Of a DNA stretch of 64,000 nucleotides, positions 7,098-57,793 are shown piece after piece. The stretch is taken from UHGV virus genome UHGV-0174779; one strand, given 5' to 3'. Made by a program: the position numbers and the translations under genes. Within the stretch, counting starts at the first letter, position 1, and every line of letters begins with the position of its first letter. The notes beneath the pieces are model-generated. The model saw only the letters and a list, made by a program, of their open reading frames with translations, ran no database searches and was not told the DNA's origin. Source of the stretch: a virus.

Positions 7098-7535
7098 ACC
7101 TTTCCCCGTGCCTACTCCCCGTTATTCTTTCCCCGTGTATACTACCCAATACATTACCTACCCGTTTATTTAGTTCCCCTTTAAAGAGTGGATGAGAGGC
7201 TAGTCTTCCACTGTACCAATAGATTGAGGCGATATAATGCCCATGAGTAATAGTCACAAGCCCCCATAGTTTGAATGTAAATGATTCTAAATGTAATGAT
7301 TATGAGTGCAATAATGATGTATGTATTAATTAAGTGGATGATTGTATTTCTTTTAATAATTTCTTTTATTCCTTTCTTTTTTCAGCGTTCTGTTGGTCTT
7401 TTTCTTTTATGAGTTGATGATTATTTAAGTGGTATATTACTACCGCACTATCTAGCTACCTTTCCCCGTGGTCTGTCCTGCGGTTGTATGTCCCCGTCCT
7501 ATATAGATAGTAGAAATAGTTTACCCGTGGGCTTG
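7098..7535. repeat. cluster of CCCCGTG / CCCGT motifs flanking an AT-rich tract
   Basis: CTTTCCCCGTG occurs 3 times (about 7100, 7128, 7460) and about 10 CCCGT copies occur on one strand between 6740 and 7530; AT-rich stretch 7260-7440. Confidence 0.55.
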
Positions 7536-7594
7536 CTTTCCTTATCAGGTAGTGGTAAATTGAATCTATCGATTGAGTGGTTGGAGTAGTAGAG

Positions 7595-7762
7595 ATGATA
7601 ATCTTAGTAATGATGGTAATAGCTGTAGTGCTTCCTTTACTTGCTCTGATTGTTAGTGAAGTGGTTGAGTTGTTCACTGACAAAAGATTAGAAGTAGTTG
7701 ATAAACCAAGCAAGTTTGATGGTGCTCAGTTTAGTAGTAAGAAAGTTGAAATTAATTGTTGA
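7595..7762 (+). CDS. small membrane protein (55 aa)
   Basis: ATG with GGAG 8 nt upstream; hydrophobic N-terminal helix. Confidence 0.25.
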   Translation: MIILVMMVIAVVLPLLALIVSEVVELFTDKRLEVVDKPSKFDGAQFSSKKVEINC

Positions 7763-7787
7763 CATGTTAGGTAGTAAGAAATATATT
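7759..7787 (+). promoter_or_regulatory. sigma70-type promoter (TTGACA-17-TATATT)
   Basis: Consensus -35 and near-consensus -10 about 40 nt upstream of ATG 7829. Confidence 0.5.
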
Positions 7788-7828
7788 TATCTCATTGAAA
7801 CGAAGCATACCAACTAAAGGAATCAATC

Positions 7829-8308
7829 ATGAATAAGGCAAACTTTGTAATCGGTGCTCTGGTATTAACCTTCGGTAGCATGGCTATCGCTGACAAGATT
7901 GCTAGTGCTCCAGTTGCTCAAGCTGCTGTAGTCATGAGTGATGCTGCTGACACCTTCGTTAGCAACGCCCCTAAAGGTTGGCTGGTTTGTAAAGGATTGG
8001 ATTCAGATAATGTCACTACGTTGATGAAAGTTAAATTATCTAACGTAACCAATCGTGGCATGGTATTGTCTACTCGTACACTTGACAACCAGAATAATGA
8101 GGATATTCTGCTTTCCCGTAAAGACAATGACCCAGAGTTGATTACTTTTGGCGATGTGCAGACTATTAAAGGTTCTAAAGTTGTGACTAATCTGGTAACA
8201 TATGGCACAATGCAAGAAACCATGTTAGCCACCTCTGTCTACAGTGGGGAAGATAACAGTATTTGGACTTTCCGCTTTCAGATGGGTGATTGTGTTAAAG
8301 CAAAATAA
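7829..8308 (+). CDS. secreted protein with signal peptide (159 aa)
   Basis: N-terminal signal peptide (MNKANFVIGALVLTFGSMAIA); own promoter and leader. Confidence 0.6.
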   Translation: MNKANFVIGALVLTFGSMAIADKIASAPVAQAAVVMSDAADTFVSNAPKGWLVCKGLDSDNVTTLMKVKLSNVTNRGMVLSTRTLDNQNNEDILLSRKDNDPELITFGDVQTIKGSKVVTNLVTYGTMQETMLATSVYSGEDNSIWTFRFQMGDCVKAK

Positions 8309-8311
8309 TAG

Positions 8312-8340
8312 TTGACACGGTTATAGATTGGCAGTATTGT
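8312..8340 (+). promoter_or_regulatory. sigma70-type promoter (TTGACA-17-TATTGT)
   Basis: Leader downstream is homologous to that of gene 7829 (ACTAAAGGAATCAA). Confidence 0.45.
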
Positions 8341-8375
8341 TACCTCATTAAGACAACACTAAAGGAATCAAGACA

Positions 8376-8705
8376 ATGAAAACTCTGATTGCATCTGCTC
8401 TTTTATCTGTAGCTGTTCTCTCAACTGTAGGATGCTCTTCTTCTCCGCGTCCCAATGGTTGGTGTGCTCTGGAAGTTGAGGGCACTTGTGTGATGCGTTG
8501 GAAAGATGGTGTTAAGGTTCCTGCTGGTGAGATTGATATGAAGTACGAAGGTGCTAGTTGCTCTAATGGTGGATCTGTTGATGAGAAGGCCTATCGTGAG
8601 CGTGATATGAAAACACAAGCTGATTGGAAGAAGTCAGACTTTATTTCCCGAGCAACTCATTGCGGTGGCAACACTTCCACTAAGGGTAAAGAATGGGACA
8701 TTTAA
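8376..8705 (+). CDS. lipoprotein (109 aa), paralog of 16350-16646
   Basis: Signal peptide with lipobox (LSTVGC); shares RPxGWCA..VEGxCV.RW..G.KVP.GEIDM...GA.CSN motif with ORF 16350-16646. Confidence 0.65.
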   Translation: MKTLIASALLSVAVLSTVGCSSSPRPNGWCALEVEGTCVMRWKDGVKVPAGEIDMKYEGASCSNGGSVDEKAYRERDMKTQADWKKSDFISRATHCGGNTSTKGKEWDI

Positions 8706-8811
8706 AAAGAAGGGTTTGTAATACCAGTTCTACTTTGTTATCTTTGATTTTCACGGTGATTGCTACTGCAATTGCTTACTATTTCTTAATTGTTTTGGGA
8801 GTGTGATACCA

Positions 8812-9075
8812 ATGGGTAATGAAACTATTGCGCTGATTGATACGCATAATTACGGTGGCGTTACGCTCTCCTTTGATGAGTCAATCGACTATGCTTATTT
8901 GTCTTTTCTTACGAAAGGTGAGATAAAAACCATTAGCTTTCCTGCGGTCTATTTAGTGCAAGATTATCTCACTATTGGGAAGTATTTAGCTCAACGTGGG
9001 ATTCTTCTATCGCTGGAAGAAGTGGAACAGATCAGTATAGCATTTTTTGTCGAGGGTAGTAATGAAGAAGAGTGA
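8812..9075 (+). CDS. hypothetical protein (87 aa, C-terminus EGSNEEE)
   Basis: ATG with GGAGTG RBS. Confidence 0.4.
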   Translation: MGNETIALIDTHNYGGVTLSFDESIDYAYLSFLTKGEIKTISFPAVYLVQDYLTIGKYLAQRGILLSLEEVEQISIAFFVEGSNEEE

Positions 9076-9535: not shown

Positions 9536-9611
9536 GCTTAATCTTTCTGCTGTATTGTGCCGTGGTCATGCCTATGGTCATAATTTATCTGATTCTCTAA
9601 TCCTTCCTGTG

Positions 9612-9635
9612 AGCCTCCTAGTGAGGCTTTTCTCA
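9612..9635 (+). terminator. rho-independent terminator (AGCCTC-CTAGT-GAGGCT-TTTTC)
   Basis: Perfect 6-bp stem plus T-run after gene 9170-9535. Confidence 0.45.
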
Positions 9636-9894
9636 TTTCTAAGGCGATTGTATGCCTTACCCTCTTTTAGCTCGTTGTGATGCGTCTGAGAGCGTCAAAT
9701 ATTGCTTTACAAGCCTGTTCTAGTGTGTTATTCGCGTGCGCGTTCCTTTATATCTCTCCTCCCTGAAAATAATCAAAATAAAGGTTGCTTTCCTTCCTCA
9801 CTTCCTCTATTATCTATTCATCGGTTAAGCAGTACCAAGTAGACAACCTGATAAGTCGTACGAAAAACAGGTAATCGATAAGAAATAAAAAAGA

Positions 9895-9922
9895 TTGACA
9901 AGATGCTCAAACGTAGTAAGAT
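9895..9922 (+). promoter_or_regulatory. strong sigma70-type early promoter P1 (TTGACA-16-TAAGAT) with A-rich UP element
   Basis: Read from sequence; A-rich tract immediately upstream. Confidence 0.55.
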
Positions 9923-10041
9923 GGGTATCAGAAACAAAGCAAGGAAACTTGCAAATGCTCTTTAAAAACTTATCGTCCTGCCCTTTCGCAAAGATTCGCG
10001 CGAGATAAGGGAAAAGAATAAAAAGAGGACGATAAAAAGAG

Positions 10042-10069
10042 TTGACAAGGTAATCTAATAAGTTATAAT
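10042..10069 (+). promoter_or_regulatory. strong sigma70-type early promoter P2 (TTGACA-16-TATAAT)
   Basis: Perfect consensus hexamers, A-rich UP element. Confidence 0.7.
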
Positions 10070-10217
10070 GATTACCAGTTAGCAGATACACCGCTAACAA
10101 GTTCTTTAACAATATGACCTGATTCACTAGCCGAGCCGCTTAGTAATCCTCAATCAAATATAGCTGATTGATATATCCTCCCAATAAAGGGAACGACGAA
10201 AAAGATTAAAAAGATGG

Positions 10218-10246
10218 TTGACAGGCGCTGAGAGATAGGTCATAAT
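10218..10246 (+). promoter_or_regulatory. strong sigma70-type early promoter P3 (TTGACA-17-CATAAT)
   Basis: Consensus -35, 17-bp spacer, near-consensus -10, A-rich UP element. Confidence 0.65.
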
Positions 10247-11169
10247 GAGCACATTAGCTAAGGGAAACATTCCGAAGCGAAGCGAGACAACGGCTAACAG
10301 TTGCATAGCGTGAGTAAACATGCTGATAGATTTACCGCTCTTTAACAATTTAAACGTTCTTCTATATCGGTTGAACATGCTTGAAGATAATAACCATCGG
10401 AAAGTATGCCAGATAAAACGGTGTAAGATTCTCTAAACTATCAGAGGAAACAATCTTGCAATCCCTTACTGGAAACGTCACCACTGACAAACGGATTCAC
10501 TGAGTGCACGCAGAGACTTAAGCTAATCGCCCACGGTTAAGGGTAGCGGCGGTCATCGCTAACAAGGCGCTACAGTGAAAGAAGTTAATCAGGGTAGACA
10601 AGTCCGACGAATACAAGCTCAATTGCGAGCGGCGGGGAGCGGTTAAAAAGTGGCAAATTGCTATTTAACAATAAGGCTTAGTGTGAACGTTTACGATGTG
10701 AACGGCTTGAGATTCATCTTATGATGAAAGTACATAGTCGGTTTATGTAGTAAACTTGCCGAAAGATATAAAACGTCGGAACATTAGACGGTCAATGACT
10801 CTTTCGCAATAGTATCCCGTAGTGGGCGATGACTAGCGATTGAGAGTTGATACAAAAGGATAGGCGAGAGCGAAAACAAAGTAGACGATATTGCCGACGG
10901 TTACAATAAATGTAACTAATTAGAGTCGGACGCACTGCCTTATTGTGATGATTGATCATCGCTATCAGGTCGGCTTAGTTTATAGCGACTAATTAAAGAT
11001 ACCAGATGAAACATCACGGATAAGGAGGCGGAAAGGTTAACTCCTGATAAGACCGCCTCACTTACCTGTAACTACTTAAAAAGTGAGTGGTTAGAGTTAA
11101 GTTAATAGTGACTTAAGCAAGCTCATAGAGAGCGGGGCATAGTGCCCTTACAATTGAAAGGTGAATATC

Positions 11170-15001: not shown

Positions 15002-15178
15002 ATGTCTAAGCAAACAATCAAGAATACGCAAGCTGGTTACTCTTATGTTAACTCTCCTTGCTGTGGTGCTCGTGTTAATCTGGTTAAGGAAGAGGTTCAT
15101 ATCATTCAGCGTGGCGCTACTGTTGTTCGTTCATGCTGTGTCTGTGGTAATGACATTTTTATCAAAGGTAAAGTATGA
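15002..15178 (+). CDS. small zinc-ribbon-like protein (58 aa)
   Basis: CCGAR...CCVCG cysteine pairs; RBS GAGGAAG; stop overlaps next start. Confidence 0.35.
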   Translation: MSKQTIKNTQAGYSYVNSPCCGARVNLVKEEVHIIQRGATVVRSCCVCGNDIFIKGKV

Positions 15179-15447
15179 AAAAGCTTATAATCCTAGTGTG
15201 TCTTATCTCTGCATTTGGCTGTAAGGAAAGGGAGAGTATCTACAAAAGTGACTATGAAAGTTCTGGGTTTTGGTACGGAGGTTTCAGGTCAGAGCCACAT
15301 ACAGCAGATAATATGCTATTCTCCGTAAAAAGAAGCTCACAAGAACTTTCTTACTATGCATGTGCCTCTTTAGCTGAAGCTCATACCAAAACATATCCGG
15401 ACGGTGGTAGAATATATTGTCTATATCTAGGAAAATGGGAAAACTAA
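15175..15447 (+). CDS. lipoprotein (90 aa)
   Basis: Signal peptide with lipobox (ISAFGC). Confidence 0.45.
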   Translation: MKKLIILVCLISAFGCKERESIYKSDYESSGFWYGGFRSEPHTADNMLFSVKRSSQELSYYACASLAEAHTKTYPDGGRIYCLYLGKWEN

Positions 15448-15449
15448 TC

Positions 15450-15710: not shown

Positions 15711-15812
15711 AGAGCTCTTAGTGAGGGTGTATCTTCCCCGCCTTCTAAGCGGTCGTTAAAGAAGTAAATGGAGTATGCAGGTTCGAGTCCTGTCACCCTC
15801 GCTAAGAGCTCT
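15711..15812 (+). other. long hairpin (about 18-bp stem) enclosing a tRNA-like T-arm (GGTTCGAGTCC); possible RNase III site or degenerate tRNA-like element
   Basis: AGAGCTCTTAGTGAGGGTG pairs with CACCCTCGCTAAGAGCTCT; internal GCAGG-TTCGAGT-CCTGT resembles a T stem-loop; a UCU anticodon-like loop (CCGC-CTTCTAA-GCGG) is present but I could not fit a canonical cloverleaf. Confidence 0.3.
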
Positions 15813-16349: not shown

Positions 16350-16646
16350 ATGAGTTGGGGTGGTGTAATATCCTTAATCTGTATCTTCCTTGTCTGTGTG
16401 GTCCTTACAGGCTGCGTACAGAGCCGTCCTGATGGATGGTGTGCAGTAGCAGTGGAAGGTGTTTGTGTTTCTCGCTGGCATAAGGGTGAGAAGGTTCCTT
16501 CTGGTGAAATTGATATGCGCTGGAACGGAGCAACCTGCTCTAATGCTAACCCGTCTATCAACGAAGAGAAATCTACGCCAGACAATGTTGTGATTGACAC
16601 AGCGTTGTGGTGTGGTGGCTCAGTAAAAACAACCGGTAAGGAGTGA
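16350..16646 (+). CDS. lipoprotein (98 aa), paralog of 8376-8705
   Basis: Lipobox (LTGC) and shared motifs with 8376-8705. Confidence 0.6.
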   Translation: MSWGGVISLICIFLVCVVLTGCVQSRPDGWCAVAVEGVCVSRWHKGEKVPSGEIDMRWNGATCSNANPSINEEKSTPDNVVIDTALWCGGSVKTTGKE

Positions 16647-55791: not shown

Positions 55792-56823
55792 TTATAGTCC
55801 AGCAAAAACCTTAGCTGCATTTATTACAGGAACCGATAAATTAACTACAGTGTCAGCTCCTAGGTCGTAATTTTGATCCCACTGAAACAGATACCTTCCA
55901 TAGCCAGTTCCTATCGCAGAACCACTCATGGTGTGAGATCTCATTTGCTGATATCTCCATCCACTGCCTTGGCCTTTTATTGCACCTATTCCAGAGGTAA
56001 GAGGTATCATGGGGTATGACATTCCAGTGTTACCACCTCCTGAGCCTATAAAAGTATCCACAGTGAAAGGTGTTCTGTTAGTAGAGAAGACACATTGTGT
56101 GGTACCCGGAGAGTAGATATTCAAACCTCCATTATGTTCCGGAACCCCTGCCCCATTGCAGAATACTGCAACTCTAGCAAACACTGAACCACCCTCATTA
56201 GTGTTGCCGTTTACGTAAGGTCTGTTCTGGTAGACACGAATAACTCTGTCATCAGATGTGTAAGACAGGCCAAGACCTCCATCAGACCAGTTAGCGAACA
56301 CAACAGCGTTTGCCATATTGAACCCACCGATATTTGGTATCTGAAGGGCATTGTTTATGACCCCCTGCCAAGCCCAAATACATTGACCAACAACTCCAGC
56401 ATCTGATATGGAAAAATAGTCTGCTGTATTTGAGAAAGTGATTCCGTAATTCCTATCAGCTCTAGGCCAAATTTGATAAACGTTGAACCCACAATCAAAC
56501 AGGGGGTTACTGCCAGGATTCTGGTTCAGAGTAACCCTAAAAGATGAGGCATTTTCTACATAGATGTTATTTACACAATAAACATCAGGGACTAAGTTAG
56601 GAGGGACTTCCCATTGCCAGCACAGAGAACCAGTGGGGACAATAATTATCTGACCACTACCATCCCATCCACTAATAGGGAAAGATCTCCCAGCTCCATT
56701 AAAGTTAAAACTCCCTCTTATACTATTCTTGAACTGAGGGAAAGTACTTCCGCTATCAATAAATAAGGGAGCAGGGGTTGCTGGCCCCGGCCCTACTGGT
56801 TGTGCCCATATTCCATATGCCAT
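55792..56823 (-). CDS. tail protein (343 aa)
   Basis: ORF in tail block, G/N/S-rich beta-rich composition. Confidence 0.55.
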   Translation of the reverse strand: MAYGIWAQPVGPGPATPAPLFIDSGSTFPQFKNSIRGSFNFNGAGRSFPISGWDGSGQIIIVPTGSLCWQWEVPPNLVPDVYCVNNIYVENASSFRVTLNQNPGSNPLFDCGFNVYQIWPRADRNYGITFSNTADYFSISDAGVVGQCIWAWQGVINNALQIPNIGGFNMANAVVFANWSDGGLGLSYTSDDRVIRVYQNRPYVNGNTNEGGSVFARVAVFCNGAGVPEHNGGLNIYSPGTTQCVFSTNRTPFTVDTFIGSGGGNTGMSYPMIPLTSGIGAIKGQGSGWRYQQMRSHTMSGSAIGTGYGRYLFQWDQNYDLGADTVVNLSVPVINAAKVFAGL

Positions 56824-56824
56824 A

Positions 56825-57793
56825 TTACCAACTCCCTATTCTAATTCTCAGAGCACCACTTCCATCGTAGAAGTCTATTCTGTTTCCATTCATCCACAAC
56901 TGTGCCCCACCTGTACCACCCATAACAAAATCACCACCAACGGTGAATCTCCAGTTAGTCCCTGACATTGTACCGGCTGTTATTTTATCCGCTGATAGAC
57001 TTTGGATCTGAGCGTTGGTTATTGATACATTAGTAATCTGTCCCCACTCAATAGTCGCAGTTGCAATTTGAGCAGAGGTGATAACTACGTTAGTAATGTC
57101 AGCAAACTCCATAACAGCCCTACCGTTCTCAACCTTGAATGGTGTACTTCCTGATGTGCCATCAGATACCACAAACTTATCAGCTGTTACTTGGAATTGG
57201 CTTATAGATCCATTGTTTGTTAACTTTACCCCTGCTGTCTTACCATTTACTGTGGAATTAACACCCCAAGTAGCTTCATACTCAGTTAGTTTCATATACT
57301 GAGAAGCACTACCTGTCCCATTCGTTAAATCAGATTGAATAAGGGCAATCTCTTGTCCTTGATCATTGACGATACCTTCAACAGTTTGAATAGATGCCGT
57401 ATTGCCTTCTATTGAAGTCTTAATACCAGACATAGTTGAATCCAATTTGACAGGAGGGCTAACCGAATTATCCCAAATATCATCGGTGGATAGATTACCC
57501 ATTTGTGTTATGATATCTGCAATGGCAGTCTCAATCTCTGTCGTAACACGGTTCTCTAGTTCATCGAATTGCAAATTCATAGCATGAAGGGCTTTAATAC
57601 GAACATCAATCTCCTCATGGATTTCATCTATAGCTTGGAACATTTGATTAGTTGCAGTACTAATATTCTGGAGTTCATCATATATTGCAACGTTATTAGT
57701 TTCTACACTCTCAGAGGTGTTTAGAAAGCCCACACTATAAGGTTGTGTTGTGTTGTTTCTTCCGGTATTCTTACGAAAGCCACCAGCACCCAT
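56825..57793 (-). CDS. tail fiber-like protein (322 aa)
   Basis: RBS TAAGGAGG; T/S/G-rich. Confidence 0.55.
   Translation of the reverse strand: MGAGGFRKNTGRNNTTQPYSVGFLNTSESVETNNVAIYDELQNISTATNQMFQAIDEIHEEIDVRIKALHAMNLQFDELENRVTTEIETAIADIITQMGNLSTDDIWDNSVSPPVKLDSTMSGIKTSIEGNTASIQTVEGIVNDQGQEIALIQSDLTNGTGSASQYMKLTEYEATWGVNSTVNGKTAGVKLTNNGSISQFQVTADKFVVSDGTSGSTPFKVENGRAVMEFADITNVVITSAQIATATIEWGQITNVSITNAQIQSLSADKITAGTMSGTNWRFTVGGDFVMGGTGGAQLWMNGNRIDFYDGSGALRIRIGSW

Follow-up and report, generated by a model that had tools for sequence, protein, structure and literature searches.

Two Rtp45-family lipoproteins in the early region of a kuravirus as candidate LptD-blocking exclusion factors

The closest described relative of the genes considered here is rtp45 of phage Rtp. 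Its product is a superinfection-exclusion lipoprotein, the structure of which has been determined by cryo-electron microscopy in a complex with Shigella LptDE-LptM (PDB 9RPS; PMC12685063). Rtp45 lies at the periplasmic side of the lipopolysaccharide exporter LptD, where its residues 30-35 pair with LptD residues 318-323 and a disulfide joins Cys30 to Cys38. A hairpin rises from there through the lumen of LptD and shifts extracellular loop 4 by up to 20 Å, thereby preventing the binding of receptor-binding proteins (RBPs) (PMC12685063). In small siphophages, the gene for a lipoprotein of this type adjoins the gene for an LptD-binding protein, as in the pair rtp44/rtp45, downstream of a J-like gene (PMC8594841). 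We describe here two genes for lipoproteins of the Rtp45 family, at 8376-8705 and at 16350-16646 on the plus strand, in a 64,000-nucleotide stretch of phage DNA (UHGV virus genome UHGV-0174779), the whole of which is referred to as the window.

Llp of phage T5 is similar in outline: it too is a small, early outer-membrane lipoprotein that binds a receptor from the periplasm and prevents RBP binding. Its target is FhuA, not LptD, and it acts allosterically, whereas Rtp45 displaces a loop physically (PMC12685063). A structure of FhuA with Llp has been reported (PMC9586334). For neither lipoprotein of the window was an Llp chain found among the PDB matches at E <= 10.

The window belongs to a Kuravirus (Gordonclarkvirinae, the phiEco32-like podophages of E. 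coli), with 92-93% identity across more than 80% of the first 25 kb. Two metagenome assemblies, L005 and L006, represent the same phage, and a third, L004, is a sister phage with the same layout. Structural genes occupy the minus strand up to about 7.2 kb and plus-strand early genes begin at about 7.5 kb, so that the locus at 7759-8705 heads the early region. Nearly no match at the DNA level was found among GenBank phages for 7500-8800, which marks this stretch as variable within a genome that is conserved elsewhere. The gene cluster that holds both Rtp45-type lipoproteins is of the early class in phiEco32 and SU10 (PMC4281155).

Two lipoproteins of the Rtp45 family

Four open reading frames (ORFs) had been singled out in an earlier reading of the window's nucleotide sequence, called here the original prediction. 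They are found where it placed them, with products of 159 (7829-8308), 109 (8376-8705), 98 (16350-16646) and 90 (15175-15447) amino acids. It had also paired the 109- and 98-residue products as lipoprotein paralogs with conserved cysteines, and a pairwise BLASTP search agrees: identity is 40% (E 8e-24), with conserved Cys positions. Both proteins match PF24052, the 'Phage lipoprotein family', the one at 8376 with 106 bits (E 8e-31) and the one at 16350 with 118 bits (E 1e-34), against a curated cut-off of 27; Rtp45 itself scores 125 bits. Both also fall in phrog_4281, and direct comparison with Rtp45 (PDB 9RPS chain D) by phmmer gave E 5e-21 for the former and E 5e-14 for the latter.

The lipobox search proposed as a check in the original prediction was positive for all three lipoproteins of the window, the 90-residue product included, each of which contains a PROSITE-type pattern. 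The lipoboxes of the two paralogs are LSVAVLSTVGC and IFLVCVVLTGC, with Ser and Val, respectively, at position +2. The +2 rule of the Lol pathway is well established; as none of the three proteins has Asp at this position, sorting to the outer membrane is expected.

Ten sequences from kuravirus, Suseptimavirus, Rtp, Dhillonvirus and Webervirus members, including Rtp45, TheodorHerzl gp26 and the homologs from Solomon, phiEco32, SU7 and EK5, were aligned. Twenty columns are invariant, among them the lipid-bearing Cys (Cys20 in the 109-residue protein), RP.GWCA, the Cys30-Cys38 pair, G.CV, W, VP.GE.D and the C-terminal E of KEW. Cys30, Cys38 and the hairpin motif G.CV..W..G..VP.GE.D are invariant in both paralogs; this is conservation at the level of sequence, the structural role of these elements being known from Rtp45 (PMC12685063). 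Over core residues 20-60, identity to Rtp45 is 61% for the protein at 8376 and 52% for that at 16350. Beyond the core, the kuravirus lipoproteins are extended at the C terminus by 20-35 residues that include a second Cys pair (Cys62/Cys96 at 8376, C63/C88 at 16350); Rtp45 has neither. The extensions of the two paralogs are 35% identical to each other.

Judged by these features, both proteins are assigned to the Rtp45 family. They share with Rtp45 the lipobox signal peptide, the core with its Cys30-Cys38 pair and hairpin segment, the C-terminal KEW motif, and membership in the same Pfam and PHROG families. The family trait they lack is adjacency to the RBP gene: the window copies lie in a podophage, some 40-47 kb from the RBP homolog, whereas the Rtp45 gene adjoins the RBP gene. 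Besides their greater length and second Cys pair, they differ from Rtp45 in being present as two divergent copies, one of which has a predicted promoter of its own.

The subfamily conserves the gene at 16350, which is the core copy; that at 8376 is an extra copy. The core copy is the positional ortholog of phiEco32 phi32_106, a 'putative phage lipoprotein' to which its product is 75% identical; across the subfamily identities are 75-96%, and the usual position is after a tRNA-Arg gene in the early region. The window differs from phiEco32 in having a second copy at the head of that region, and in the HNH endonuclease gene and aberrant tRNA-like element that precede the core copy. The first of these, a homing-endonuclease gene (PF13392; 15822-16337, plus strand), stands between the tRNA-like element and the lipoprotein gene and is missing at that spot in L004, EK5, phiEco32 and SU7. 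Its product and Rtp40 are both 171 residues long, with no significant similarity between them. The tRNA-like element (15723-15801, plus strand) is found where relatives carry a normal tRNA-Arg(TCT), and L004 has the same variant. It scores 30.2 bits with the Rfam tRNA model (threshold 29), and no tRNA was predicted by ARAGORN anywhere in the window. The element retains the anticodon loop and T-arm of a normal tRNA, with a different acceptor stem, an apparently missing D-arm and an insert of 18 nt in the variable region, and it is flanked by a 12-bp inverted repeat.

The extra lipoprotein is closest (about 70%) to the allele found at the core position in SU7, ECBP2 and EK010, and it looks like a mosaic. 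The signal peptide, which is 58% identical to that of TheodorHerzl, and the first mature residues are siphophage-like, and the C-terminal extension is SU7-like (68%). Synonymous divergence from L004 (pS) reaches 0.82 over the codons of the signal peptide, compared with 0.24 over those of the mature part. No close relatives of this protein were found in a scan of IMG/VR. Relative to L004, the ratio of nonsynonymous to synonymous divergence (pN/pS) is 0.10 for the mature extra lipoprotein, 0.14 for the core lipoprotein, 0.05 for the 159-residue protein and 0.35 for a 37-residue ORF that follows the extra copy; all four are under purifying selection and are real genes. Of 378 GenBank phage records that match the lipoprotein, one, from a Klebsiella phage, does so in two places, and the presence of two copies in one kuravirus is thus new among sequenced isolates.

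LptD as probable target and possible receptor

By analogy with Rtp45, and from the conserved sequence features, the two lipoproteins are on balance probably early LptD-blocking exclusion factors, lipidated and sorted to the outer membrane, with the extra copy expressed from a predicted promoter, P2, in the first early operon. We infer lipidation, export, LptD binding and exclusion alike for these kuravirus proteins. In the first minutes of infection, host sigma70 RNA polymerase would initiate at P2 and at the preceding predicted promoter, P1, with P2 driving the extra lipoprotein and P1 the co-expressed 159-residue protein; the core lipoprotein would follow from downstream early promoters. Export of the precursors by the Sec pathway would be followed by attachment of lipid to the lipobox Cys and cleavage by signal peptidase II, and with Ser or Val at +2 the Lol pathway would deliver the mature proteins to the inner leaflet of the outer membrane. 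There the conserved N-terminal core, with the motif RP(D/N)GWCA...G.CV..W..G..VP.GE.D and the Cys30-Cys38 disulfide, may dock on the periplasmic side of LptD. The hairpin would then enter the lumen of the barrel and displace extracellular loop 4, and the RBPs of phages that require LptD would be unable to bind. This would shield the infected cell against superinfection and keep progeny from adsorbing wastefully to it or, later, to its debris.

The original prediction had suggested that the envelope-targeted proteins of the early region mediate exclusion or mask a receptor. This suggestion gains support for the two paralogs from their PF24052 membership, their direct matches to Rtp45 and their location in the early cluster, but no function could be assigned to the 159-residue protein or to the 90-residue lipoprotein.

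Since Rtp45-type genes adjoin Rtp44-type genes in siphophages, the window was searched with Rtp44. It matched the gp19 homolog, a protein of 343 residues (55792-56823, minus strand) with a DUF6453 domain (PF20051, E 5e-23; 1e-113 for Rtp44 itself) that is related to Rtp44 and to RBP-Oekolampad. The match to Rtp44 has E 2e-9 in tblastn and E 2e-11 in BLASTP, over 307 residues and nearly the whole length, and the sole PDB match is 9RPT chain C, the Oekolampad RBP bound to LptDE (E 8e-9). Directly upstream and co-directional is the gene for gp18 (56825-57793, minus strand), the tail needle with a lambda-J-like tip domain (7Z4B_EA, E 6e-171; PF09327, E 3e-21), in which residues 49-242 align with residues 905-1068 of the J-like Rtp43 (E 2e-6). 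The order is the same as in Rtp, tip and then RBP, with gp18 corresponding to the C-terminal part of Rtp43 and gp19 to full-length Rtp44, although the tip in the window is a 322-residue podophage tail needle and Rtp43 a J protein of 1136 residues. As far as homology can tell, all three parts of the LptD module, namely tip, RBP and exclusion lipoprotein, have counterparts in the window.

Matches to DUF6453 and PF24052 occur in the same groups: Gordonclarkvirinae, Webervirus, Dhillonvirus, Rtpvirus, Veterinaerplatzvirus and phage F20. At least 10 phages appear in both of the sampled match lists, some of them as separate GenBank and RefSeq records. Within the Gordonclarkvirinae gp19 is conserved in roughly 90 matching records, and its alleles among kuraviruses range from 45% to 99% identity, as is often seen in receptor-binding proteins.

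The homology of gp18 and gp19 to a J-like tip and to the LptD-binding Rtp44 suggests that kuraviruses may use LptD as a terminal receptor. We tentatively propose, as a real possibility that falls short of being probable, that the Gordonclarkvirinae do so by means of gp18 and gp19, that the conserved early lipoprotein is the cognate exclusion factor, and that a second, divergent copy with its own promoter was added in this lineage. Whether the kuravirus would itself be among the excluded phages depends on the function of gp19. In selections for resistance to the kuravirus ES17, O-antigen-loss mutants alone were obtained (PMC11990801), which could be explained by LptD being essential. A precedent for a podophage that uses LptD has been reported, the Pseudomonas phage DEV (PMC12892993). 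What is new lies in the inference of a receptor and in the arrangement, with lipoproteins in a podophage, unlinked from the RBP gene, and a duplicated copy equipped with a promoter.

Several observations weigh against these proposals. The kuravirus lipoprotein genes are not adjacent to the RBP gene, unlike those of Rtp and Dhillonvirus, and the C-terminal extension with its additional Cys pair means that the target could have shifted. An AlphaFold2 model of the 109-residue lipoprotein, based on a five-sequence alignment, had a mean confidence score (pLDDT) of 53.7, too poor for a test of the fold, and a Foldseek search of the PDB with it gave nothing below E 3.8; the authors of the Rtp45 study likewise considered AlphaFold predictions for Rtp45 unreliable (PMC12685063). 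As to the receptor, gp19 goes unmentioned in the SU10 structure paper, in which gp18 is identified as the needle and gp20-24 are assigned to ejection, and neither of the two SU10 studies lists it among the virion proteins identified by mass spectrometry. In the BASEL study, kuravirus host recognition is ascribed to O-antigen and LptD is not mentioned for kuraviruses; a cell-surface receptor is proposed for their short tail fibers, by analogy with the binding of the lipopolysaccharide (LPS) core by T-even phages (PMC11990801). The core lipoprotein of the window is of the NJ01 type and its gp19 of the phiEco32 type, so that the two alleles do not co-vary, and no paper linking LptD to kuraviruses was found in the literature searched.

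Some of these points would fit a function against competitors only, in which a kuravirus that does not itself use LptD blocks it in the infected cell against co-occurring LptD-dependent siphophages. Kuravirus infection depends on O-antigen, with no protein receptor known (PMC11990801), and the failure to detect gp19 in SU10 virions and the independent variation of the two alleles point the same way. So does the distance of about 10 kb between the lipoprotein and RBP genes in Weberviruses, from which it follows that adjacency is not universal in the PF24052 family. Such a restricted function is nonetheless rather unlikely, because the full-length Rtp44-type gene directly after the gene for the J-like tip, conserved as it is throughout the matching Gordonclarkvirinae records, would be hard to explain without a role for LptD in kuravirus entry.

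The lipoproteins may instead have been re-targeted, either to another outer-membrane protein or to a takeover of host LptDE that would, for example, halt LPS/O-antigen export, and the paralogs could have different targets. The extensions with the second Cys pair, which are not found in Rtp45 and have diverged between the paralogs, would be in keeping with this, as would the low overall identity of the two proteins. The part of Rtp45 that is reported to contact LptD, residues 30-35 and the lumen hairpin, is the best conserved part of the family, and we regard re-targeting as decidedly unlikely.

The first early operon and its insertion

In the early region of SU10, one sigma70 promoter precedes the first early gene, a terminator comes next, and a spacer contains three promoters (PMC4281155). 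The window matches this layout exactly, with P1 (7759-7787, plus strand), hairpins at 9559-9697 and promoters at 9895, 10042 and 10218, and has P2 as one additional promoter. P1, TTGACA-17-TATATT, agrees with the sigma70 consensus at 11 of 12 positions and corresponds to the single promoter before the first early gene of SU10 and phiEco32 (PMC4281155). The 3' end of a small membrane-protein ORF (7577-7762, plus strand; phrog_7482) lies inside its -35 element; the NJ01 homolog of this ORF is annotated as similar to rtp71 of phage Rtp, and is thus another gene common to Rtp-like siphophages.

The first gene after P1 (7829-8308, plus strand) encodes the 159-residue exported protein, which has a Sec-type signal peptide (cleavage between AIA and DK) and two conserved Cys (54 and 155), and which a structure model predicts to be a periplasmic eight-stranded beta-barrel. 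This is the hypervariable first early gene of the Gordonclarkvirinae (the phi32_128/SU10_0125 family). Its family comprises 157 proteins, all from Gordonclarkvirinae and with both Cys invariant; word-indexed protein searches with single queries gave three matches each, and a profile query reached further. Short forms have 160-167 residues, and long forms of 290 residues have a cytoplasmic domain and a membrane helix ahead of the same periplasmic domain. Apart from phage relatives of the protein, fold searches with the model brought up only small beta-barrels of a generic kind, and neither this protein nor the products of neighboring genes had matches in PADLOC or Pfam. The barrel might itself be an exclusion factor, for instance by inhibiting the transglycosylase of incoming virions as T4 Spackle does, so that the operon would hold two layers of exclusion; we give this little weight.

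In the original prediction each of the genes at 7829-8308 and 8376-8705 was credited with its own sigma70-type promoter, and a second such site is indeed present. P2 (8312-8340, plus strand), TTGACA-17-TATTGT, is collinear with P1, agrees with the consensus at 10 of 12 positions and has the same 17-nt spacer; in L004 it is kept as TTGACA-17-TATTAT. Between 6 and 18 kb there are six sites with at least 10 of 12 matches on the plus strand, all within 7.7-10.3 kb, and none on the minus strand. Dinucleotide shuffles of this 12-kb region gave 2.07 ± 1.48 such sites, and six were reached in 3% of the shuffles. One of the six (8082-8109, plus strand; 10 of 12) lies within the 159-residue gene. Its -10 element is degraded in L004, and we take the site to be spurious, since TTGACA here codes for the conserved residues T-L-D-N and the resemblance to a promoter probably arises from the coding sequence.

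The 14-mer ACTAAAGGAATCAA, which includes the Shine-Dalgarno sequence AAGGA, was identified by an exact-repeat search and occurs exactly twice in the 64 kb, at 7813-7826 and 8358-8371 on the plus strand, both times directly 5' of a start codon. Taken alone, this repeat is only moderately unusual: the window has about 28 exact repeats of at least 14 nt, of which three lie within 1 kb, and five of the 14 bases are Shine-Dalgarno sequence. The regions from promoter to leader also align as a whole. Their collinear local alignment, which runs from an upstream A/T tract through both promoter elements (-35 and -10) and the CTCATT of the predicted start to the ribosome-binding site, has a score of 38, compared with 15.4 ± 2.4 and a maximum of 31 in 2000 shuffles, and with at most 22 for other promoters or gene-upstream regions of the window. 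The P1 and P2 leaders are thus more alike than a shared consensus accounts for. The shared conserved leader of the original prediction therefore holds within the window, as an exact 14-mer pair in a collinear alignment, but the 14-mer is inexact in L004, where both promoters are retained and the two leaders agree at only 10 of 14 positions.

It is very improbable that P1 and P2 resemble each other only through their -35, -10 and Shine-Dalgarno sequences and that the lipoprotein gene is read through from P1, P2 being no functional promoter: the absence of a detectable terminator between the 159-residue and lipoprotein genes, a P2 -10 element that fits at 4 of 6 positions only, the inexact 14-mer of L004 and the fact that at a threshold of 9 of 12 promoter-like sites are no commoner than in shuffles are outweighed by an alignment score above that of all shuffles and of all other promoters of the window, by the retention of P2 in L004 with a better -10 element, and by the clustering of the stronger sites in this region.

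The regulatory part of the supposed 'duplicated cassette' does resemble P1, but the whole is better described as a moron-like insertion of about 500 bp. In EP335 and EK5, no more than about 15-25 nt separate the stop codon of the homolog of the 159-residue protein gene from the homolog of the gene at 8812-9075. Alignment with these phages and blastn synteny show an additional 500 bp or so at the same junction in L004 and in the window (8309-8806, plus strand), comprising P2, the leader, the lipoprotein gene and the 37-residue ORF. This last (8693-8806, plus strand), which is conserved in L004, encodes a single-pass membrane protein and overlaps the stop codon of the lipoprotein gene (ATGGGACATTTAA); no family was found for it in PADLOC or Pfam. 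The insertion is present in the three metagenome contigs L004, L005 and L006 and in no sequenced isolate.

Morons of lambdoid phages were reportedly described by Hendrix and colleagues (2000), and the early-promoter cassettes of T4, called PeSL, by Arbiol et al. in 2010. Like these, the insertion is absent from close relatives and places an accessory gene with its own predicted promoter between genes that are adjacent elsewhere, with a regulatory sequence repeated before neighboring variable genes. It differs in having no convincing terminator or stem-loop, there being only a weak hairpin at 8755-8776, inside the 37-residue ORF and without a clear T-run, and in that the phage is lytic and the promoter an early phage promoter rather than one expressed in the lysogen. 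The extra lipoprotein gene would have been acquired with its promoter as such a unit and may bring earlier or higher expression, a second specificity, or both. Two copies may be kept because expression is thereby earlier or higher, because more targets are covered, or because RBPs that tolerate one blocker can still be stopped.

Downstream, the segment at 9540-11160 is poor in ORFs over about 1.6 kb. The hairpins at 9559-9697, four in number and terminator-like, are followed in it by the three promoters named above, which are strong, tandem and of the sigma70 type, and some 900 nt without a convincing ORF separate these from the next gene. Conservation of the segment in EK5 and L004 is 83-89%, and nothing in Rfam matches it; possible readings are a non-coding RNA and a long leader.

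A third lipoprotein and implications for kuraviruses

The original prediction placed a third lipoprotein at 15175-15447 (plus strand). The 90-residue product does have a lipobox, but it bears no relation to the other two lipoproteins. Its gene is a precise gene-sized insertion (15183-15449) between two translationally coupled genes that overlap in EK5 and L004, and its start overlaps the upstream stop codon (ATGA). It is an ORFan: GenBank phages gave no match, and among 1.84 billion representative proteins only its own cluster was found (one representative, 98% identical). There was no meaningful match in the PDB and nothing in PADLOC or Pfam.

Kuraviruses are frequently discussed as candidates for phage therapy; they are common and resistant to restriction systems. 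Their conserved early lipoprotein, annotated merely as a 'putative lipoprotein' since 2008, is now tied to Rtp45. LptD is essential and conserved and would thus be an attractive target for phages; that it serves kuraviruses as a receptor and that the lipoprotein blocks it is a specific hypothesis and a cheap one. The two divergent copies would form a natural pair of blockers for the comparison of specificities, and the extra copy with its predicted promoter suggests that exclusion genes may move as small autonomous units into the first operon to be transcribed.

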